Assembly: GCA_024403795.1 (NCBI GenBank)
Contig: JAKSRD010000006.1
Coordinates: 12,589-76,588, forward strand
Origin: Saccharofermentans sp.
GTDB lineage: Bacteria > Bacillota > Clostridia > Saccharofermentanales > Saccharofermentanaceae
DNA: 64,000 nucleotides
Reading direction: 5' to 3'
Each line of letters starts with the position of its first letter. The stretch's first letter is position 1. Positions 17,240 through 49,923 of the stretch are shown here, piece after piece. The notes under the pieces were generated by a model, which made no database searches, was not told the origin of the DNA, and saw only the letters and a program-made list of their open reading frames with translations. A program made the translations under genes and the position numbers.

Positions 17240-17989
17240 TCAGTCGTGGAAGGGTTCACTCTCTCCACGTGATCTGACGATCTCTGATGCGATCGCGATA
17301 TCTTCCGGAGTGGTGATCTTCAGATTAGAGTAGCTTCCGGACGTAAGATAAACATCAAGACCATAGTCAGCGGCGAGCGCCGTATCATCGGTCGCAATGA
17401 CGCCTTCTGCCAAAGCTCTCTCATAACACATTTTTATATCCTTATATCTGAATCCCTGAGGGGTGAGGATCTCATAGAATCTCGATCTGTCAGGAGTAGC
17501 AGTTACCTTGACGTCACCTGACGGGAGAACTTCGACTTCCTTCAAAGTATTCTTGACTTGTACGGCTGATGCGCAGACATCATGATCTTTAAGTCCGTCA
17601 ATGCATGCCTTTACTTCTTCTGCAGTTACAAGGCAACGAGCTCCGTCGTGGACAAGAACAAGATCGTCATCACCTGCATCGGTGATCGCTTTGATCCCCA
17701 TTGCCACAGACTCTGTTCTGGATGCTCCTCCCAAAGTAAATATGAATACAATGTCGGGAAAGTATTCCGCACACATTGCTTTGAGCGTGTCTATGAGATC
17801 ACTTGTCGTAACGATAACGAATCTGTAGTCGAGTGAAGCGTATCTCATACGGCTTAATTCAGCCAGAGCGCCGAGTGTCCTCAATATGACGGGACTTCCT
17901 TCGACATTCCGCATTAACTTAGGCTGACCGGCGCCCATGCGCGTGCCGCTTCCGGCAGCCGGTATCAGGAAATAACATTTGTTGGTCAT
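17240..17989 (-). CDS. ispD: 2-C-methyl-D-erythritol 4-phosphate cytidylyltransferase
   Basis: PAAGSGTRMG, GGASRTESV, HDGARC, TPQGF, TDD, NLKITTPED; start at ATG 17989 after a GGAGGT SD. Confidence 0.88.
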   Translation of the reverse strand: MTNKCYFLIPAAGSGTRMGAGQPKLMRNVEGSPVILRTLGALAELSRMRYASLDYRFVIVTTSDLIDTLKAMCAEYFPDIVFIFTLGGASRTESVAMGIKAITDAGDDDLVLVHDGARCLVTAEEVKACIDGLKDHDVCASAVQVKNTLKEVEVLPSGDVKVTATPDRSRFYEILTPQGFRYKDIKMCYERALAEGVIATDDTALAADYGLDVYLTSGSYSNLKITTPEDIAIASEIVRSRGESEPFHD

Positions 17990-41183: not shown

Positions 41184-41834
41184 ATGGCAAGAATGAGAAC
41201 CAAACGCAATATCCCGGCGCGCATGGACAAGTGCCATGAGCGTTGGTTTGATGCGCCTATGTTGAACCGCGGCAAGTGGCGTGAGGCTTGCGGTTTTGAC
41301 GAGAACACGCCAATTTGGCTTGAGATCGGTTGCGGCAAAGGCAAGTTCTGTTCCGAGATGGCGGCAAGGCACCCTGAAGTCTTGTATATTGCTATGGAAA
41401 GAGAGCCTTCCGTTATTCTTGCTGCAATCGAGAAAGCACATGCGATGGAGCTTCCGAATCTTTTCTTTATCAGAGGCGATGCCGGAATCATCGAGAATTA
41501 TTTTGCAGAGGATGAAGTCAACAGGATCTTCCTTAACTTCTCGGATCCCTGGACCAGACAGAATAAGCCTAAGAGACGTCTCACATACAGAGATTTCCTT
41601 ACCAAGTATAAGGTCATGATGAGGGACGGCGGAGCAATAGAGTTCAAGACTGATAATGATGATCTTTTCGATTTCTCATTGGAAGAATTCAAAGAGACGG
41701 GATTTGCTCTCGAGCAGGTCACGAGAGATCTTCATAACAGTGAGTATAACGAAGAAAATATCCGTACCGAGTTCGAGCAAAAGTTTGCAGATCAGGGGAT
41801 ACCGATCAAGCGTGTTGTTGCCGTAATGCAGTGA
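41184..41834 (+). CDS. trmB: tRNA (guanine-N7)-methyltransferase
   Basis: LEIGCGKG, LNFSDPW, RRLT, FKTD, TEFE.KF. Confidence 0.92.
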   Translation: MARMRTKRNIPARMDKCHERWFDAPMLNRGKWREACGFDENTPIWLEIGCGKGKFCSEMAARHPEVLYIAMEREPSVILAAIEKAHAMELPNLFFIRGDAGIIENYFAEDEVNRIFLNFSDPWTRQNKPKRRLTYRDFLTKYKVMMRDGGAIEFKTDNDDLFDFSLEEFKETGFALEQVTRDLHNSEYNEENIRTEFEQKFADQGIPIKRVVAVMQ

Positions 41835-41843
41835 ACGTTTTGT

Positions 41844-43349
41844 TTATTTGCGCTCGAAAAGGCAGAGACCGCTGCTCTCGTATGTAATCTCATAGTCCTT
41901 ATCATAGAGAAGTGACATATACAGGTAACGGTCACTTTCTTTACTGATGATCAGGTAATTGAATCCGTATTTATCAGTGAAGTCCTTGTAATACATGTGA
42001 GCGCTCTTCATGTTGTAATACTCTTCAAAGTAGTCAAAACTGTCATTATTTGCCAGTAAGAATAATTCTGCTCTTCCGTCAATATAAGGGTGGTATCCTT
42101 TGTATTCCAGATACTGACCATCGTTAAAATTTGTATATAAGACGACGGGATCTTCTTCGCGGTCGAGGATCTCTACGATCTCGTCAAGCTGCTCATAGTG
42201 ATATTCAAAAGAAGGCTTCGAGAGAATGGAGTCGTTCAGGCAAACCAGACAGGTCACGGCAAGGATAAGAACGGCTATTATGCCCGCCAGGAGATTGACA
42301 GTGCGGGTAATCTTTATCTTCTCCGGAAGTTTGAACTCTATGTCTCTGAGGACGTATGAGAAAGCGGAAATTGAGAAAACAAAGAAGTAGCTGATGGCTT
42401 TTACATGCATCAAAGCGAGAAGTGTCGTTCCACAGAAAAGGCAGAAGAATCTGACGGAGAAATCACTCTTCTTCTTGAAGAAAACGATCACTCCGATGAG
42501 CGCAAGGAATAAGAAGTAGTATTTACCGTACTGTATGCTCAAGCTTGTCGGCTGCATCTCAATGATCATAGCATTGAGTTTGTCCTGACCGTAGGAAGAT
42601 GTGAGATAGATTACACTATCGATTCCGTATGGGTTGAGGAGTCCCAAAACGATGCTTACCGCAAATGAACACAACAATGGTAACAGATTGCAGCAGGGCT
42701 CATACTTGAATCTTCTTCCCTTGATCGTGATGTTGACGGGAATGGCAGCAACAATGTAAGGAAGCATGAATACGAACATCATGGGCCACATGGCGGCATG
42801 AAGATTGACCAGTGCCAGTGACAGCAAGGGGAGAACTGCAAGATAGAGGTTCTTCTTTGTCAGAACGAATCTCTCGAGCAAACACAACTCTATGAGCAGG
42901 AACGTGTATGTAAAGAGCTGCGGTCTCGTTACTGCCAGATTCTTGAACAAAAGGAAATCTGTAATGCACGCAATCAAAGCGGAGAGCAACTTGTTATTGG
43001 TAATAAGATAGTTCAAGCGGTAGGAGAGCAGACAGATTCCTATGTAGAAAGAATAGAGCAGAACAAGCATGCCGACCATGCCGAACTTGGAATATACGAA
43101 GTAGAAAATAACGCTGCTTAACCATTGCTGGACAACGATCTTCATGTCAGAATGCATGGAGAGCATGTCGTAATGGGGAAAACCGTTCTTTACGATGTAA
43201 TCACCTGTTGCATAGAGAAAGTAGAAATCATTATCGAGTGTTCGTAATCTGAAGAAGGATACAATGATCGGGAATAAAAGAATGACAAGTACAAGCCAGT
43301 TTTGTGACTTGATAAAATCCGACTTCAACGATCTCTTAAGCTCCGGCAT
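41844..43349 (-). CDS. Polytopic membrane protein, putative GT-C-like transferase
   Basis: About 12 TM segments; acidic DND after TM1, QQWLS, RPQLF, NLH, LLNPYG, YIDGRAE. Confidence 0.55.
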   Translation of the reverse strand: MPELKRSLKSDFIKSQNWLVLVILLFPIIVSFFRLRTLDNDFYFLYATGDYIVKNGFPHYDMLSMHSDMKIVVQQWLSSVIFYFVYSKFGMVGMLVLLYSFYIGICLLSYRLNYLITNNKLLSALIACITDFLLFKNLAVTRPQLFTYTFLLIELCLLERFVLTKKNLYLAVLPLLSLALVNLHAAMWPMMFVFMLPYIVAAIPVNITIKGRRFKYEPCCNLLPLLCSFAVSIVLGLLNPYGIDSVIYLTSSYGQDKLNAMIIEMQPTSLSIQYGKYYFLFLALIGVIVFFKKKSDFSVRFFCLFCGTTLLALMHVKAISYFFVFSISAFSYVLRDIEFKLPEKIKITRTVNLLAGIIAVLILAVTCLVCLNDSILSKPSFEYHYEQLDEIVEILDREEDPVVLYTNFNDGQYLEYKGYHPYIDGRAELFLLANNDSFDYFEEYYNMKSAHMYYKDFTDKYGFNYLIISKESDRYLYMSLLYDKDYEITYESSGLCLFERK

Positions 43350-43508
43350 CGTGGTTACCCCTTGAGTTTAGTGTGTATAGAATTATAACACGGATATTTT
43401 ACATTACTGATGCTGTCGTGAGTTGCTTATATATTTTAATAAAAAGTTTTACAAAGTTCCGAAGTAGGTTAAAATACACTGGAAAGTTTTTATACAGGAG
43501 AACATCAA

Positions 43509-44567
43509 ATGGTTTACGTTAATGAGAAGATCAAGAACACTTATCGCGTACCTCAGCCTGAAGGCAGAGGCAAATATATCAGATTGGACCAAAATGAGAA
43601 TTCAGACGGACTTCCCAAATGGTTGGTCGATTCCGTGATGGAGAAGGTCACACCTGAATTTTTGGCGATCTATCCGGAGGAATCTATCCCTACCGAGAAA
43701 TATGCCAAGCAGCTTGGTCTGGAGAAGGAGAATGCGACACTTACCTGCGGAAGTTCCGTAGGTATGGGTTATGTAATCAAGGTTTTCGGTGAGCCCGGAA
43801 AAGACATCCTTTGCGTAACTCCTTCATTCGCCATGTATGAAGTCTATGCCAAGATGATCGGAATGAATGTCAGACAGCTCAAGTATAACGATGATTTCTC
43901 ATATGATATCGATCAGACGCTTTCCGCGATCAACGAGAATACGGGAATCGTTGTATTGGTCAATCCCAATATGCCCGTCGGCAATGTATATTCACCGGAT
44001 GACATCAGAAAGGTTATCGAGAAAGCAGGAGAATATAATGCCCTGGTGATCATCGACGAGGCTTATTACTATTTCTTCGATAAGACAAGTGTTGCTCTTG
44101 TTAAGGAATATGACAATGTCGTTGTATTGAGAACATTCTCCAAGATGCTCTCGATGCCTGCTTTAAGACTCGGTTCCATCATCTCGACGGCTGAGAATAT
44201 TCAATACATAAATAATTACAAGCCGCACTATACAGTTAACTCCATTGCGCTTCTCTTCTGTGAAGCCATTGTTGATAACCATGACCGGTTATTGGCTGAG
44301 CTTACCGAGCAGTACAACGAAGGTAAGGAATATGTTCTTGCCAAGCTCAAGGAATATGATTATGTCACCATTCCTTCAGAAGGTTGCTATGTCTGCATCA
44401 AGCCCAAGCACAAGACTTCCAGAGAGATAACCGATCTACTTCAGGAGAACGGCATCCTCATTCTTTGCGGTAAGGACGGACTCACCGGATGGCTCAGACT
44501 GACCATTGCACACAAGAAGTACATGGAAATATTCATGGATGCGCTCTTAAAGCTTGATCAGGAGTGA
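43509..44567 (+). CDS. HisC/CobD-like PLP-dependent aminotransferase or decarboxylase (class I/II)
   Basis: RLDQNEN, NPNMP.G, DEAYY, RTFSK (PLP Lys), LRLG; SD AGGAG. Confidence 0.85.
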   Translation: MVYVNEKIKNTYRVPQPEGRGKYIRLDQNENSDGLPKWLVDSVMEKVTPEFLAIYPEESIPTEKYAKQLGLEKENATLTCGSSVGMGYVIKVFGEPGKDILCVTPSFAMYEVYAKMIGMNVRQLKYNDDFSYDIDQTLSAINENTGIVVLVNPNMPVGNVYSPDDIRKVIEKAGEYNALVIIDEAYYYFFDKTSVALVKEYDNVVVLRTFSKMLSMPALRLGSIISTAENIQYINNYKPHYTVNSIALLFCEAIVDNHDRLLAELTEQYNEGKEYVLAKLKEYDYVTIPSEGCYVCIKPKHKTSREITDLLQENGILILCGKDGLTGWLRLTIAHKKYMEIFMDALLKLDQE

Positions 44568-44583
44568 TACGGTAACTTTATAT

Positions 44584-45297
44584 ATGAAGAATTATGCGAT
44601 CATTCTTGCAGGCGGAGTCGGAAAGAGAATGGGTTCCGATATCCCAAAGCAGTTCATTGAGGTAGAAGGCAAGCCGATAATCGTCTATTCGATAGAGAAT
44701 TTCCAGAGAAATCCTCAGATAGATAAGATCGTGGTTGTTTGCGTTAAGGACTGGATCGATTATACACGCGAGCTTGTTGAGAAGTATTCTCTGAACAAGG
44801 TTGAGTGGATCATAGAGGGCGGTGCCACAGGACACGATTCCATCAGGAACGGAGTGTTTTTCCTTAAGGATAAGGCAGAACCTGATGATCACATCATAGT
44901 ACATGATGCCGTCAGACCGGTCCTCCCTCAGAAAGCACTTGATGAAGTCATCAGAGTCTCACATGAGAAGGGTAATGCGTCTTCTTCGATCGCATGCCAT
45001 CCGCCGATCGTATATACGGAGGATAATGAGTCCGGTATTACCGATGTTGACCGTGAGCATGTAATGCTTACTGCATCACCGCAAGCCTTCAGATATTCTC
45101 TCGCTTATGACTGCTATCAGAAGGCGGAAGAAGAGGATTACCATACATCGACATTTACGAGTTCTTTGCTCATACATTGCGGTGAACGTGTGTATTTTGC
45201 AAAGGGAACGACCTGCAACATCAAAGTAACGACTAAGGAAGATCTGGCTTTGTTCTCGGCGCTTCTCAAAGTGCCCGAAGAACTGATGTACAGCTAA
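44584..45297 (+). CDS. IspD/TarI-family cytidylyltransferase (second paralog)
   Basis: ILAGGVGKRMG.DIPKQF, HDAVRP, SPQAF, NIKVTT.EDL. Confidence 0.85.
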   Translation: MKNYAIILAGGVGKRMGSDIPKQFIEVEGKPIIVYSIENFQRNPQIDKIVVVCVKDWIDYTRELVEKYSLNKVEWIIEGGATGHDSIRNGVFFLKDKAEPDDHIIVHDAVRPVLPQKALDEVIRVSHEKGNASSSIACHPPIVYTEDNESGITDVDREHVMLTASPQAFRYSLAYDCYQKAEEEDYHTSTFTSSLLIHCGERVYFAKGTTCNIKVTTKEDLALFSALLKVPEELMYS

Positions 45298-45307
45298 AGG
45301 GGAAGAT

Positions 45308-45841
45308 ATGAATTGTTCTGAGTATTTGGTCAATTATCTGATCGAAAACGGTGTGACTGATGTATTCGGTTATGCGGGCGGTTATATTGTTCCGTTTATG
45401 GATGCGCTTTATAAGCGTCGCGACGAGATCAAGCTTCACGTCTGCTACAACGAGCAGGGATGTGCTTTGGCAGCCGACGGTTATGCGCGAACAAGCGGCA
45501 AGTTAGGCGTGTATTTCACGACCTCCGGTCCGGGCGCGGTCAACGGTCTTGCCGGTCTTGCAGATTGCTGGTTCGACGGTTTCCCGATAATGGGAATATG
45601 CGGCAATGTGCCAACTCATGAGATGAAGGGATTCTCAGGAATCCGTCAGAACGGCTTCCAGGAGATGGATCTCGTATCCATGACCAGAAGCGTTTCAAAG
45701 TACTCGGTTACTGCTAACAGTGCTGAAGGTTTTCCCGAGATCGTAAGCAGAGCTTATAATATTGCCTTACTTGGAAGAAAAGGAGGAGTCGTCATTGATT
45801 TTCCGCTCGACATACAGCAAGCCGATATTATTGGCGGGTAA
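45308..45841 (+). CDS. ThDP-dependent enzyme, stand-alone N-terminal (PYR) domain, acetolactate synthase-like
   Basis: VFGYAGG, NEQG (catalytic Glu), ADGYAR, TSGPGAVN, FQEMD, GVVIDFPLDIQ then stop. Confidence 0.8.
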   Translation: MNCSEYLVNYLIENGVTDVFGYAGGYIVPFMDALYKRRDEIKLHVCYNEQGCALAADGYARTSGKLGVYFTTSGPGAVNGLAGLADCWFDGFPIMGICGNVPTHEMKGFSGIRQNGFQEMDLVSMTRSVSKYSVTANSAEGFPEIVSRAYNIALLGRKGGVVIDFPLDIQQADIIGG

Positions 45842-46907
45842 CGGAGTTCGCACATCCGGTGCGGTTAAGTTGCTTCATGAATTTGCAAATAAGACCAACA
45901 TCCCTGTCTTGACGACAATGAACGGTGTTGATCTCGCTCAGGATGATCTTCACATCGGTTTTATCGGCACTCACGGTAACCGTGTTGCCAACATGATCAT
46001 CAACGAGTGTGATGTGATAATCTCTGTCGGTGCCAGACTCGGCATACGCCAGGCCGGCAAGAATACCAAGTGTTTTGCTCCTCAGGCAGATCTCATCAGA
46101 TGTGACATCGATGAGTATGAGTTGAGCAGGACCATAAAGGAGAATGAACGTAAGTATCATTCGGATGCACGCGATTTCCTGATGATGCTCCTTGCAGAAG
46201 ATGTTCCCGATTATTCCGATTGGAAGAATAAGTGCATGGAAGCAAAGCGCATGCTTGAAGATTACGATAAACAGCCGGGTAATAAAGCTGTGGAGAAGAT
46301 CTCTTCATTGCTCCCTTCAGATCCGGTAATCTCCGTGGATGTCGGCATGAACCAGTGCTGGTGTGCACAGTCCCTTCATCTTAAGGGTTACAACGGAAGG
46401 ATCCACATAAGCGGAGGCTACGGTACCATGGGCTGCGGACTTCCGTTTGCGATTGGTTCATCGATAGCAAAAGACTGCGGCAAGTCGTTTTGCATCAGCG
46501 GTGACGGCGGATTCCAGATGAATATTCAGGAATTGGAGACCATACACAGAGAATCTCTTCCGGTAAAGATCTTCATCCTTAATAACCACGTTCTTGGTAA
46601 GATAAGCGAGACGCAGTATTTTGAACACGATGAGAGATATGCGGCAACGGCACGTTCCGGCGGATATACAGTTCCGTCTTTTGCGAAGATAGCGGAAGCA
46701 TACGGTATCAGAGCTGCACAGCTCGAGTCCTGTGAAGAACTCGATAACTATAAAGAGTGGATCGATGATGACATGCCGTGTCTGTTTGACATTGCATTGC
46801 CTGAGGCAAGTTTCCTCACGCCGAAGATCAAGTTCGAGACAGGCAAGATGAGACCTGAACTTGACGACAGCATAGTGGCGGGCGTAAAGAGAGTATTGAA
46901 AGGTTGA
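45795..46907 (+). CDS. ThDP-dependent enzyme, central plus PP domains, acetolactate synthase-like
   Basis: KPILLAGNG, DVGMNQ.W, SGG.GTMG.GLP, GDGGFQMN..LNN; in-frame TTG at 45795 lies 8 nt after AGGAGG. Confidence 0.78.
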   Translation: MIFRSTYSKPILLAGNGVRTSGAVKLLHEFANKTNIPVLTTMNGVDLAQDDLHIGFIGTHGNRVANMIINECDVIISVGARLGIRQAGKNTKCFAPQADLIRCDIDEYELSRTIKENERKYHSDARDFLMMLLAEDVPDYSDWKNKCMEAKRMLEDYDKQPGNKAVEKISSLLPSDPVISVDVGMNQCWCAQSLHLKGYNGRIHISGGYGTMGCGLPFAIGSSIAKDCGKSFCISGDGGFQMNIQELETIHRESLPVKIFILNNHVLGKISETQYFEHDERYAATARSGGYTVPSFAKIAEAYGIRAAQLESCEELDNYKEWIDDDMPCLFDIALPEASFLTPKIKFETGKMRPELDDSIVAGVKRVLKG

Positions 46908-46916
46908 TGATCTGCT

Positions 46917-47798
46917 TTGATAGACAGTAAGCGAATGTATTCCACATATTTTAAGGAGTATATCCTGGATGATGATATGCTTCACCGGCTTCAGGGAGAA
47001 CTGTTCAAGATACTCCTTGATATTAAGTATGTGTGCGAGAAGCATAACATCTCTTATATGCTTTGCGGCGGCACCTTGATCGGAGCTGTCAGACACAAGG
47101 GATTTATTCCGTGGGATGACGACATAGATCTCATGATGATCAGAAGCGAAGCTGAGAAGCTTGTCGTAAAAATGCGCGAGGAATTCCCTGATAAATATAT
47201 GGTCGCTGAGCCCTTGTGCGATGAGCAATATGTGGTTAAGTCAATCAAGATATATAAGCGCGGAACCAAATATGTTGAGATCCCATATGCCGGACTTAAG
47301 GGCTTTGACATGCTCTTCATTGACGTCTTCATCATTGAGAATGTCCCTGCAAATAAGCTTGCGCGTAAGATTCACAGTTCTTTTTACAACTTCATATATA
47401 AAGCGGCAAGTGTCTGCGTTGACTATAAGTATCCTTCTCCGGTCATCATGAAGAAGGCTGAAGAGAATAAGGAAGTTGCCGATTACTATAAGACGAGAAG
47501 AAGGCTGGGAAGCTTTTTCGCGCACCTGGGAGGAATGAAATTCTATCTTAAGTTATGCGAGAAGGTAGGGAACAAGAAGAAACACACGGGCTGGCTCGGC
47601 ATTCCGTCCGGCGGATGTGCCATCGAGAACTTCCCCGAGAAAATGTATCTGGAGCTTACGACTGCCGAATTCTGCGGAGAACAGTTTCCGATCCCTACAG
47701 CTTATGATGAGAATCTGACAGTGGTATTCGGTGATTATATGAAGATTCCCGAACCGTCAAAGCGCGACTGCCACGTCGCATATGAGATCAAGTTCTGA
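46917..47798 (+). CDS. LicD family phosphotransferase
   Basis: GGTLIGAVRHKGFIPWDDDID, IDVF, FGDYM..P. Confidence 0.88.
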   Translation: MIDSKRMYSTYFKEYILDDDMLHRLQGELFKILLDIKYVCEKHNISYMLCGGTLIGAVRHKGFIPWDDDIDLMMIRSEAEKLVVKMREEFPDKYMVAEPLCDEQYVVKSIKIYKRGTKYVEIPYAGLKGFDMLFIDVFIIENVPANKLARKIHSSFYNFIYKAASVCVDYKYPSPVIMKKAEENKEVADYYKTRRRLGSFFAHLGGMKFYLKLCEKVGNKKKHTGWLGIPSGGCAIENFPEKMYLELTTAEFCGEQFPIPTAYDENLTVVFGDYMKIPEPSKRDCHVAYEIKF

Positions 47799-47800
47799 TA

Positions 47801-48613
47801 TTACCTGTAACGTGAGCAGAGAGAATGCGTCATTCTGTCTTCTTCGGGAGGCAGCTGCATATAATCTCCGTACTGAAGTCTGAGATATTTATCCGCATTG
47901 CGGGGAATGAAGAATTCTGTATCTTCGAACGGAACAAGTTCAGGATTCTCAATGTCAACTCTGTCCAGAGCAGAATCAGGTGTCGTATCATCTTCGCAAA
48001 GGACGCATACGCTCTTTGCCTTATCGTATTTGCTCCACGCACAGATCGAGGAGACACGGCGTTCATATTTGTGATTCCTGTTCGGGAGACACTTCAGAAT
48101 GAATTTGCGGACAGCAGCTTTTGCTTTGCTCTCACTGTCCGGGAGATATAAGGTAGCATTAAGAAGTCTCAAAGTGAGCATTCTGAGCGGATTCTGTATC
48201 CAGATCTTGGGCTTGATGATCCCGTCCAAAGGGAACAGGTCTACCCAGACACCCATGCCGCGAATGGGTTCTCTCAAATAAGAAGGTTCAACTACCGTCT
48301 TTGTATTGCAGGCACGAACGATGGCATAATGATAATTGTCATCTGTTGTGTGATCGAAAAGCTGTACGATCGGGCTTATCGGTTCCTTTTTACTTAGTTC
48401 GACGAGCTTGGTAATGTCTTCTCTCGGCATGTAGATATCCATGTCGTTGTCCCACGGAATAAAGCCCTTATGTCTAACCGCACCAAGCAAGGTGCCGTAG
48501 CCGAGGACATATCTGAGACCGTGTTTAACGCAATAAGCATGAAGATCCTTCATTACCTCAAGCTCGGCCATTTGTTCTTCTCGCACAGTGAGAAAACCGT
48601 CGGAATTGCTCAT
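47801..48613 (-). CDS. LicD family phosphotransferase (second, convergent)
   Basis: GTLLGAVRHKGFIPWDNDMD, VDLFPLD, YGDYMQLPP. Confidence 0.88.
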   Translation of the reverse strand: MSNSDGFLTVREEQMAELEVMKDLHAYCVKHGLRYVLGYGTLLGAVRHKGFIPWDNDMDIYMPREDITKLVELSKKEPISPIVQLFDHTTDDNYHYAIVRACNTKTVVEPSYLREPIRGMGVWVDLFPLDGIIKPKIWIQNPLRMLTLRLLNATLYLPDSESKAKAAVRKFILKCLPNRNHKYERRVSSICAWSKYDKAKSVCVLCEDDTTPDSALDRVDIENPELVPFEDTEFFIPRNADKYLRLQYGDYMQLPPEEDRMTHSLCSRYR

Positions 48614-48888
48614 TTATAATGCCCCCGTCATAACTGATATGCGGTGATTATAGCATAACTTCCCGTTTATCATGATTTATTGAAGCCCCGAGAATCGGGT
48701 TTTGAGGTCAAACAAAAATCGTTTGAGTGAAAAATTGGGCAATATCCCTGATTTAGGATCAAATTTACATTCTTGTGACAAATTTACTGTGGAAAAGCCT
48801 AATTAATAAGAGTAGAATTCTTAAGGTGCAGAAAAAAGGCACTATTAATGTTAATAATCCCGATTAGGGAATTTAGGAGGAATTCAAT

Positions 48889-49923
48889 ATGGCAGTAAAA
48901 GTTGCGATTAACGGTTTCGGTCGTATCGGTCGTCTTGCTTTCAGACAGATGTTCGGTGCTGAGGGTTATGAGGTTGTTGCTATCAACGATCTTACAAAGC
49001 CTTCTATGCTCGCTCACCTTTTGAAGTATGACACAGCACAGGGTGGTTACGCTGGCGTTTTCGGCGAGAACAAGCACACTGTAACTTCTGATGACGAAGC
49101 TAACACAATCACAGTTGATGGTAAGACACTTAAGATCTACGCTGAGAAGGAAGCTGTTAATTGCCCTTGGGGTGAGCTCGGTGTTGACGTAGTCCTCGAG
49201 TGCACAGGTTTCTACACATCAAAAGAGAAGTCAATGGCTCACATTCAGGCTGGCGCTAAGAAGGTTGTTATCTCTGCTCCTGCAGGCAACGATCTTCCTA
49301 CAATCGTTTACAATGTTAACCACACAACACTCACAGCTGATGATAAGATCATCTCTGCTGCTTCTTGCACAACAAACTGCCTTGCACCTATGACAAAGGC
49401 TCTCAATGATTTCGCTGCTATCCAGAGCGGTATCATGACAACAGTTCACGCTTACACAGGCGATCAGATGATCCTTGACGGTCCTCAGAGAAAGGGTGAC
49501 CTCCAGAGAGCAAGAGCAGGTGCTGCTAACATCGTACCTAACTCTACAGGCGCTGCTAAGGCTATCGGCCTCGTAATCCCTGAGCTCAACGGCAAGCTCA
49601 TCGGTGCTGCTCAGAGAGTTCCTACAACAACAGGTTCTACAACAATTCTTCACGCTGTTGTTAAGGGCGAAGTTACAGTTGACGGTATCAACGCTGCTAT
49701 GAAGGCTGCTACAACAGAGTCTTTCGGCTACACAGAAGAGAAGCTCGTTTCTTCTGATATCGTTGGTATGAAGTTCGGTTCACTCTTCGATGCTAACCAG
49801 ACAATGGTTTCCAAGATGGATGACGGTAACTCACTCGTTCAGGTTGTTGCTTGGTACGATAACGAGAATTCTTACACATCACAGATGGTAAGAACAATCA
49901 AGTACTTCGCAGAGCTCGGCTAA
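48889..49923 (+). CDS. gap: Type I glyceraldehyde-3-phosphate dehydrogenase
   Basis: [35 protein letters not shown]; strong codon bias; SD AGGAGG. Confidence 0.97.

Follow-up and report, generated by a model that had tools for sequence, protein, structure and literature searches.

A recurrent gene cassette built around a split thiamine diphosphate enzyme in Saccharofermentans and other gut and rumen bacteria, a candidate pathway for amino-polyol phosphate decoration of surface glycans

A stretch of 64,000 nucleotides of Saccharofermentans sp. (assembly GCA_024403795.1, contig JAKSRD010000006.1, positions 12,589 to 76,588; the whole stretch is hereafter called the window) was analysed for the genes that lie between trmB and gap. 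Open reading frames (ORFs) combined with matches to Pfam and NCBIfam profiles identified seven genes in this interval (Table 1), among them genes for a pyridoxal phosphate (PLP) aminotransferase, a cytidylyltransferase, a thiamine diphosphate (ThDP) enzyme and two LicD-family phosphotransferases, which are considered here as a cassette that may produce and attach an amino-polyol phosphate activated with cytidine diphosphate (CDP). This bears out the gene list, gene order and placement between trmB and gap given in a preliminary description of the same DNA. Genes of the plus strand are spaced by 9-16 nt or overlap, and thus form one operon. Neither TarJ, LicA/B/C, phosphoenolpyruvate (PEP) mutase, a dehydratase nor IlvN/IlvC was identified at the locus by ORF and profile analysis, and the intergenic gaps are too short to hold further genes, confirming the absences claimed for it; the separate housekeeping ispD that had been placed at about 17 kb was also found.

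Table 1. Genes and other features of the trmB-gap interval and related genes of the window (positions are those of the window; aa, amino acids)
Feature	Position	Strand	Remarks
GT-C-like membrane protein	41844-43349	-	501 aa, polytopic; backbone neighbour, outside the island
Promoter-like site TTTACA-16-TAAAAT	43448-43475	+	Upstream of the aminotransferase gene; consensus match only
Ribosome binding site-like caGGAGa	Ahead of aminotransferase ATG 43509	+	Read from the sequence
HisC-like PLP aminotransferase	43509-44567	+	352 aa; Aminotran_1_2, E 4.7e-46; proposed role, amination of a keto intermediate
TarI/IspD-like cytidylyltransferase	44584-45297	+	237 aa from ATG 44584; ORF opens at TTG 44554; PF01128, E 7.8e-42
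ThDP enzyme, PYR (N-terminal) subunit	45308-45841	+	177 aa; TPP_enzyme_N, E 3.5e-35
ThDP enzyme, middle and PP subunit	45795-46907	+	370 aa; TPP_enzyme_M and TPP_enzyme_C
LicD-family phosphotransferase a	46917-47798	+	293 aa; PF04991, E 1.1e-38; last plus-strand operon gene
LicD-family phosphotransferase b	47801-48613	-	270 aa; PF04991, E 9.5e-41; convergent to LicD a
Flanking trmB	41184-41834
Flanking gap	48889-49923
Housekeeping ispD	17273-17971

A single ThDP enzyme resembling acetolactate synthase had been described at the locus. Its assignment to the ThDP family held, but the enzyme was found to be encoded by two overlapping genes for subunits of 177 aa and 370 aa. The gene of the larger subunit starts with the TTG at 45795, behind an AAGGAGG (45780-45786), and its first 47 nt are shared, in a different frame, with the gene of the smaller subunit. 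The 120 best homologues of the larger subunit all measured 329-381 aa and possessed the middle and C-terminal domains without the N-terminal domain, and in the 36 loci fetched the gene for these two domains was preceded by an N-domain gene of 176-188 aa, with the 177-aa PYR subunit being 77-96% identical among them. Two loci of Bacteroidales (L024, L025) carry the two genes without overlap, separated by a spacer of 17 nt. Furthermore, a search of 1.8 billion representatives at 50% identity grouped the full-length proteins of the split family into a single cluster. The conserved lengths, recurrent split, Bacteroidales spacer and single cluster show that the split is natural and that the gene is not broken. 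An initial reading of the pair as a frameshifted or deleted pseudogene lacking the alpha-beta linker was ruled out by homologue sizes, the 36 recurrent loci and the spacer.

The catalytic Glu lies in an NEQG motif of the 177-aa subunit, while the 370-aa subunit possesses a GDG...NN motif (GDGGFQMN...LNNHVLG) that is invariant across the family. The pair thus combines the PYR catalytic Glu and the PP signature GDG-X(24-27)-NN of the ThDP decarboxylase/acetohydroxyacid synthase (AHAS) superfamily. The Protein Atlas holds the larger subunit from residue 12 on, under generic names ("thiamine pyrophosphate-binding protein"). Within the overlap (45795-45841), which is read in two frames, the upstream product ends in ...VIDFPLDIQQADIIGG* and the downstream product begins with M-IFRSTYSKPILLAGNGV. 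The AHAS-like pieces DxPxDxQ and KPxLLxGxG sit at opposite ends of these 47 nt, so that little of the sequence would be under double constraint. The overlap is retained in Clostridia, with the spacer taking its place in Bacteroidales.

The nearest relative outside the split cluster was found to be an unsplit protein of 536 aa with 48% identity (L063:4668-9611), encoded in a polysaccharide locus beside a short-chain dehydrogenase/reductase (SDR), a PfkB kinase and a PEP-utilising enzyme. Another unsplit relative, of 794 aa and fused to an acetyltransferase (L064:734-6747), is followed by three aminotransferases of the Aminotran_1_2 and DegT types in a glycan locus.

Conservation of the cassette as a unit had been named beforehand as a test of its being a pathway, and was borne out by a locus scan with one genome per species, which gave 35 loci that were annotated using BLAST against the proteins of the window. 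Nine metagenome-assembled genomes (MAGs), labelled Saccharofermentans, Oscillospiraceae, Ruminococcaceae, Clostridiales or Clostridia, possess the same genes in the same order; the full island lies between trmB and gap in eight of them, while the contig of the ninth (L007) is 3.3 kb long and breaks off within the island. A core of four genes (aminotransferase, cytidylyltransferase and the two ThDP subunits) was found again, at 72-88% identity, in [Clostridium] symbiosum ATCC 14940, Lachnospiraceae bacterium XPB1003, several Clostridia of rabbit gut and rumen, and one Treponema MAG. In all three loci with annotated neighbours (C. symbiosum, Treponema and one Clostridia MAG) this core lies inside a Wzy-type polysaccharide locus, next to a TarF/TagF-like Glyphos_transf protein, an EpsG polymerase and GT2 enzymes; a flippase, glycosyltransferases and LicD or TarF/TagF-like transferases were identified near the cassettes. 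In Bacteroidales the split ThDP pair is 67-69% identical and is accompanied by a reductase and by a cytidylyltransferase of another kind.

The ThDP gene was found in 10 of 99 species genomes of the genus to which the window belongs and in none of 43 genomes of the other genera of the family. Five congeners without the cassette read trmB, GT-C-like gene, gap, and homology to this empty site resumes near 48710, approximately 180 nt upstream of gap. The empty sites delimit a mobile unit at 43509-48613. This six-gene island of approximately 5 kb is a horizontally mobile module common to rumen and gut bacteria of three phyla.

The trmB-gap interval (41835-48888 in the window; L089-L096 among congeners) is itself a variable spot in the genus. 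Some congeners carry the GT-C-like gene only, and L091 carries neither this gene nor the island. In L095 the interval holds a GT-C protein of 17% identity with a weak Alg9-like match, along with an Rce1-like protease, and in L096 it holds an insert of 8 kb with a methionine ABC transporter, an iron-containing alcohol dehydrogenase (Fe-ADH) and Cys/Met PLP enzymes.

Comparison of the cassettes identified two alternative ways of handling a carbonyl group. In at least 11 loci, including that of Eubacterium uniforme ATCC 35992, the aminotransferase is replaced by an extended SDR of 351-361 aa, the gene for which lies on either side of the cytidylyltransferase and ThDP genes. The best solved relative of this SDR is HS5.17 of Campylobacter jejuni (8V4G/8V4H, E 2.5e-42), an enzyme that reduces CDP-6-D-fructose to CDP-6-D-glucitol (PMC10918830). 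In Bacteroidales and some Clostridia the split ThDP pair is preceded by genes for a short IspD (200 aa) and a short SDR (205 aa), and in L038 a nucleotidyltransferase is fused to an Aminotran_1_2 domain directly beside a LicD-like gene and the split pair. The ThDP enzyme is therefore the invariant element, always found with a cytidylyltransferase and a carbonyl-acting enzyme. The interchange of aminotransferase and reductase around it, which is the most informative comparative result, suggests that the shared intermediate, the carbonyl INTERMEDIATE, is a phosphate-bearing carbonyl compound bound for CDP activation.

The large subunit of AHAS (IlvB/IlvI/IlvG) is a single chain of about 550-590 aa with IlvN as partner, in which the Arg and Trp of the motifs RFDDR and QW position the second keto acid. 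The split subunits scored 156.3 and 229.4 bits against the TIGR00118 cut-off of 538, while the ilvB of the same genome scored 673.6 bits. The acceptor motifs are replaced, RFDDR by RLGIR (with the last Arg kept) and MVxQW by ISETQ without Trp, and IlvN and IlvC are absent from all annotated cassette loci. In size, score, acceptor motifs and partner the split enzyme thus differs from AHAS proper. With single sequences the best solved matches were 5ahk (4.6e-45), JanthE (8rph, 3e-43) and E. coli AHAS I (1.5e-40), whereas the family profile gave a statistical tie between JanthE (1.7e-52), AHAS I (5.5e-52) and 5ahk (9e-52). 5ahk is probably the YerE homologue of Pseudomonas protegens (PpYerE). Pyruvate oxidase, glyoxylate carboligase and simple decarboxylases scored far lower against the family. 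As the best matches are carboligases, the split enzyme is assigned, from its sequence, as a carboligase of the AHAS/YerE type. In the synthesis of yersiniose, YerE transfers an acetyl group derived from pyruvate to a 4-keto sugar that is linked to CDP (PMC12247030), and JanthE is a YerE-like carboligase that accepts ketones (PMC12188165).

The aminotransferase of the cassette scored 228.7 bits with TIGR01141, below the cut-off of 276.55, while a separate hisC of the genome scored 298 bits. Alignment to E. coli HisC showed that the equivalents of the PLP residues Y55, D184, Y187, S213, K214 and R222 are kept, as is R335. In structures of E. coli HisC, D85 and Y110 hold the imidazole, and R322 and R335 the phosphate, of histidinol phosphate. 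The changes D85 to S, Y110 to F and R322 to L were found to be invariant in 19 members of the aminotransferase family, whereas the housekeeping HisC of the same genome keeps the equivalents of all three residues, indicating that the substrate pocket has been rebuilt. On score and on lost substrate residues the enzyme falls outside HisC. Position 157 (Asn in HisC, Met here) was dropped as a diagnostic change, the housekeeping HisC having Ala there. Of the earlier label "HisC/CobD-like", the HisC-like paralogue of the Aminotran_1_2 class stands. A CobD-like decarboxylase role, in which threonine- or serine-phosphate would give an amino-alcohol phosphate, is considered unlikely on account of the TIGR01140 score (131 bits, far below the cut-off of 290), the reductase swap, which points to a carbonyl substrate, and the ThDP enzyme, which would be left without a role. 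C. jejuni Cj1437 and Cj1436 are reportedly involved in the formation of serinol-phosphate and ethanolamine-phosphate. They are alike in being Aminotran_1_2-class PLP enzymes that make amino-alcohol phosphates for a capsule, but their pathways need neither a ThDP enzyme nor CDP activation. The structures 6oux and 8fft, which may correspond to these two enzymes, match the cassette aminotransferase at E of about 1e-12, against 1e-30 for HisC.

The cytidylyltransferase, with homologues of 236-238 aa, scored 174.2 bits with NF001183 ("D-ribitol-5-phosphate cytidylyltransferase"), above the cut-off of 166, and its best matches in the PDB are TarI proteins (4jis, 3f1c, 2vsh, 6xhp). By score it would be a TarI, while the reductase partner of such enzymes (TarJ, or the C-terminal domain of Bcs1) is missing from the locus. 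Whether the enzymes are ordinary ones had been the other test named beforehand, and these comparisons set the cassette proteins apart from ordinary HisC, IlvB and IspD: separate copies above the cut-offs exist in the genome, the HisC residues are replaced and RFDDR/QW are lost.

Both phosphotransferases belong to the LicD family, with PF04991 scores of 134 and 140.8 bits, where 22.6 is the gathering score, and an N-terminal DxD motif in each (WDDDIDL / WDNDMDI). They are 26% identical to each other and share the motif GTLxGAVRHKGFIPWDxDxD; in congeneric islands LicD a is 83-89% and LicD b 66-70% identical. The sole PDB match of LicD a is FKRP. The two genes are convergent with stop codons 2 nt apart (47798-47801), and as no terminator-like hairpin was found between these stops, the transcripts of the two strands would run into or overlap each other.

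From these observations we propose, with moderate confidence and on sequence comparison, that an AHAS/YerE-type carboligation yields a keto-polyol phosphate that is CDP-activated, transaminated and transferred by LicD to a surface glycan. The two-subunit ThDP enzyme would decarboxylate a 2-keto acid, most simply pyruvate, and attach the resulting C2 unit to a carbonyl compound bearing a phosphate, such as a triose phosphate or another aldose phosphate, giving an acyloin resembling a 1-deoxy-ketose phosphate. The TarI-like enzyme would join this acyloin to cytidine monophosphate (CMP) from cytidine triphosphate (CTP), and the HisC-derived aminotransferase would turn the keto group into an amine, with the reductase of sister cassettes yielding an alcohol. 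Finally, the CDP donor would pass its amino-polyol phosphate, through the action of the two LicDs, to a cell-wall or capsular polysaccharide, with either two positions as acceptors or two steps in succession. Inference enters this scheme at the donor and acceptor of the carboligation and its product, at whether cytidylyl transfer or amination comes first, and at the identity of the acceptor glycan. The pathway first suggested for the locus (carboligation and transamination, CDP activation and attachment to a glycan) gains support from unit conservation, the reductase swap and the glycan loci, with its chemistry predicted.

The order of steps was examined using the cytidylyltransferases. None of 255 alignment columns separates those of aminotransferase-type from those of reductase-type cassettes, and both types interleave on a tree that is poorly resolved, which is weak evidence that the cytidylyltransferase sees the same substrate in both. 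This shared substrate, the likeness of the reductase to a CDP-ketose reductase and the loss of a phosphate-binding Arg from the aminotransferase suggest that cytidylyl transfer may precede amination or reduction. The fusion in L038 would make nucleotidyl transfer and amination adjacent steps, and favours the ThDP step coming first over its lying in between.

A number of points weigh against the proposed pathway. The genome of the window is a MAG of 64% completeness, and the chemistry of the cassette is deduced from sequence. The ThDP family lies equally far from AHAS and from YerE-type enzymes, and its sequence does not separate a free aldehyde phosphate from a CDP-linked ketone as acceptor. 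The NF001183 score of the cytidylyltransferase leaves room for plain CDP-ribitol, and the poorly resolved tree leaves room for a single origin of each cassette type. HisC-family enzymes are known to act on phosphate esters and not on CDP-linked ketones, a precedent in favour of amination coming before cytidylyl transfer. No description of the cassette was found in a full-text literature search, and we know of no glycan with such a substituent. Regarding the order, Bcs1-type enzymes reduce the free ketose phosphate before cytidylyl transfer, as cited in PMC10918830.

The alternative that survives best is a branching reaction like that of YerE, in which the cytidylyltransferase would activate a common ketose phosphate (xylulose-, ribulose- or fructose-phosphate) to a CDP-ketose, and the ThDP enzyme would add acetyl from pyruvate to this ketone, creating a tertiary alcohol with a branch; the acetyl carbonyl would then be modified by the aminotransferase, or in sister cassettes by a YerF-like reductase, before LicD transfers the branched amino-polyol phosphate. 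We regard this as rather unlikely. JanthE is the top profile match and 5ahk, if it is a YerE, the top single-sequence match, yet E. coli AHAS I is statistically equal to JanthE. The AHAS acceptor-site motifs have shifted to the pattern of 5ahk (RQxG, no Trp), the physiological acceptor of YerE is a CDP-linked 4-keto sugar (PMC12247030), the sister-cassette reductase resembles an enzyme for a CDP-linked ketose, and the cytidylyltransferase lacks residues specific to aminotransferase or reductase cassettes, all in keeping with the branching route. On the other hand, the L038 fusion suggests that nucleotidyl transfer and amination follow each other directly, leaving no place for an intervening ThDP step, and the short IspD and short SDR of Bacteroidales resemble Bcs1-type CDP-ribitol synthases, in which, as cited in PMC10918830, reduction of the free ketose phosphate comes first.

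A second alternative is that the ThDP enzyme turns a phosphorylated or phosphonylated 2-keto acid (3-phosphohydroxypyruvate, 2-keto-3-deoxy-6-phosphogluconate or phosphonopyruvate) into an aldehyde, which would be aminated or reduced, CMP-activated and transferred to give, for example, a phosphoethanolamine or a head group like 2-aminoethylphosphonate (AEP). The series ThDP enzyme, aminotransferase or reductase, cytidylyltransferase and LicD mirrors the Pnt phosphonate pathway (PMC6697681), and PEP mutase is encoded in five cassette-bearing genomes (L047-L051). However, the PEP mutase loci are separate from the cassette, and all four that were annotated hold a canonical phosphonopyruvate decarboxylase (Ppd) of 373-374 aa (TPP_N and TPP_C without a middle domain), directly beside the PEP mutase gene in L047 and L048, with an AEP transaminase or Fe-ADH in two (L047, L050), on other contigs or about 37 kb away. 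As these genomes hold their own canonical Ppd, the split enzyme is not needed for a phosphonate pathway. In addition, the split enzyme has an AHAS-type middle domain and carboligases as its best matches, the cytidylyltransferase is TarI-like and not LicC/PntC/ECT-like, the reductase of 353 aa is closer to CDP-ketose reductases than to aldehyde reductases, and no match to PEP mutase (PF13714) was found in the genome of the window at its 64% completeness. The decarboxylase route is accordingly judged improbable, and the phosphonate pathway was rejected as the principal explanation on the missing PEP mutase match and the separate Ppd loci. The PEP mutases of L047-L051 are strong matches at a separate locus, two of those annotated being CTP_transf_like fusions and one also NTP_transf_3, and in L047 a GT2 enzyme and a Polysacc_synt flippase follow the genes of this locus. 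Carriers L047-L051 seem to stack several phospho-head-group decorations.

It is highly improbable that the cassette serves ordinary CDP-ribitol decoration, with a plain TarI and LicD pair adding ribitol phosphate as FKTN/FKRP do and the aminotransferase and ThDP genes merely co-travelling: the cytidylyltransferase passes the NCBIfam ribitol-5-phosphate cut-off, LicD-family enzymes do transfer ribitol phosphate (PMC4873967) and FKRP is the sole PDB match of LicD a, but neither TarJ nor another ribulose-5-phosphate reductase lies at the locus, no element recurs as constantly among the variants as the ThDP pair, in three phyla and with different cytidylyltransferases, housekeeping hisC and ilvB lie elsewhere in the genome, and the aminotransferase lacks the HisC substrate residues.

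The proposed pathway of carboligation, CDP activation, amination and LicD transfer has parts in common with several known systems. AbpA/AbpB provide a route to CDP-arabinitol. Other CDP-ketose routes are those of C. jejuni HS5.18/HS5.17 (CDP-6-D-glucitol) and Streptococcus pneumoniae Mnp1/Mnp2 (CDP-mannitol) (PMC10918830). These routes likewise combine an IspD/TarI-type cytidylyltransferase with a carbonyl-modifying enzyme and deliver a product used by phosphotransferases in capsule or teichoic-type loci, but start from a central ketose phosphate and possess neither a ThDP enzyme nor an aminotransferase, whereas in the cassette the ThDP carboligase is invariant and the keto group would be aminated. 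YerE/YerF of yersiniose A synthesis, JanthE and PpYerE resemble the cassette in that a ThDP enzyme of the AHAS superfamily works in a glycan pathway whose intermediates are linked to CDP, and a reductase then acts on the carbonyl that has been formed (PMC12247030, PMC12188165). The YerE enzymes are, however, single chains of about 580-620 aa with a cyclic CDP-4-keto-3,6-dideoxyhexose as acceptor and travel with CDP-hexose dehydratases, while the cassette enzyme is split (177 and 370 aa) and travels with a polyol-phosphate-type cytidylyltransferase and LicD/TagF.

The systems TarI/TarJ and Bcs1 with LicD-family or TarL/TarF transferases, and mammalian ISPD/FKTN/FKRP, share with the cassette a TarI-like cytidylyltransferase and transfer of a polyol phosphate by the LicD/TagF family, with paired LicDs as in FKTN and FKRP (PMC4873967). 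As the cassette has a ThDP enzyme and an aminotransferase in place of a TarJ/Bcs1 reductase, its alcohol moiety cannot come via reduction of ribulose-5-phosphate. The Pnt clusters (Ppm, Ppd, AEP transaminase, PntC and LicD; Rice et al. 2019, PMC6697681) apply the same enzyme logic to surface glycans, and the L038 fusion is as in Tde1415. They differ in that the cassette has no PEP mutase in or near it, an AHAS-like ThDP enzyme with a middle domain in place of Ppd, an aminotransferase of the HisC class and not class V, and a cytidylyltransferase that is TarI-like and not LicC-like.

The divergent gene upstream of the island had been counted as a glycosyltransferase of the GT-C type within the pathway. 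Hydropathy predicted about 10-11 transmembrane helices and a C-terminal soluble domain, and the motif LDNDF after the first helix is nearly invariant. An AlphaFold2 model had a pLDDT of 66, the region of the first loop being poorly modelled, and Foldseek gave STT3, PglB, DPY19, ALG12 and AftA as best matches (E 2.5e-4, TM-score 0.42-0.46), with all of the top 24 being GT-C enzymes and a probability of 1.00 for the first 19. No Pfam family scored above its cut-off, only DUF6541 appearing below threshold. A GT-C fold thus has moderate support. Membership of the cassette did not hold: the gene is present between trmB and gap in cassette-negative congeners, at 50-57% identity, and is therefore a backbone neighbour, one that evolves fast. 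Between species the protein is 47-57% identical, compared to 85-91% for TrmB and 93-96% for Gap. A second GT-C-like paralogue, 50-52% identical to that of the window, follows LicD b in L005 (12923-14407) and L009 (12919-14583), indicating that the gene has been duplicated beside the cassette in some species.

In three metatranscriptomes from two studies, contigs of 159-311 nt at a depth of 2-7 were found to match the aminotransferase, cytidylyltransferase, both ThDP genes and LicD a at 93-100%, with the depth of gap ranging from hundreds to 1800; no contig covered the GT-C-like gene or LicD b. These RNA contigs may stem from relatives, and are compatible with low expression of the plus-strand operon.

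With regard to what the cassette makes, a tentative suggestion is that the ThDP enzyme builds a non-standard skeleton, such as a 1-deoxy-ketopentose phosphate from pyruvate and triose phosphate, which after CDP activation and amination or reduction would give a new family of amino-deoxy- or deoxy-alditol phosphates as substituents of surface polysaccharides in gut and rumen bacteria of at least three phyla. The logic of decoration with a CDP-alcohol head group is known, the new components being the dedicated carboligase and the HisC-derived aminotransferase; if the pathway is correct, these would be the first ThDP carboligation and the first HisC-derived aminotransferase to serve a head group of the teichoic-acid type. 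As enzymology, the cassette would offer an AHAS/YerE-type carboligase that is split by nature, a HisC paralogue adapted to a polyol substrate and a natural switch between amination and reduction, and such enzymes could serve in the synthesis of chiral amino-polyols. ThDP carboligases in sugar pathways may also be more widespread than the literature on YerE implies. Two cultured strains carry the cassette, C. symbiosum ATCC 14940 with the aminotransferase and Eubacterium uniforme ATCC 35992 with the reductase. Phosphodiester head groups (choline, ethanolamine, glycerol, ribitol, AEP) govern phage adsorption, recognition by lectins and antibodies, docking of autolysins and surface charge, and a cationic amino-polyol phosphate would, if the pathway is correct, be a new zwitterionic decoration that is common in rumen and gut Clostridia.

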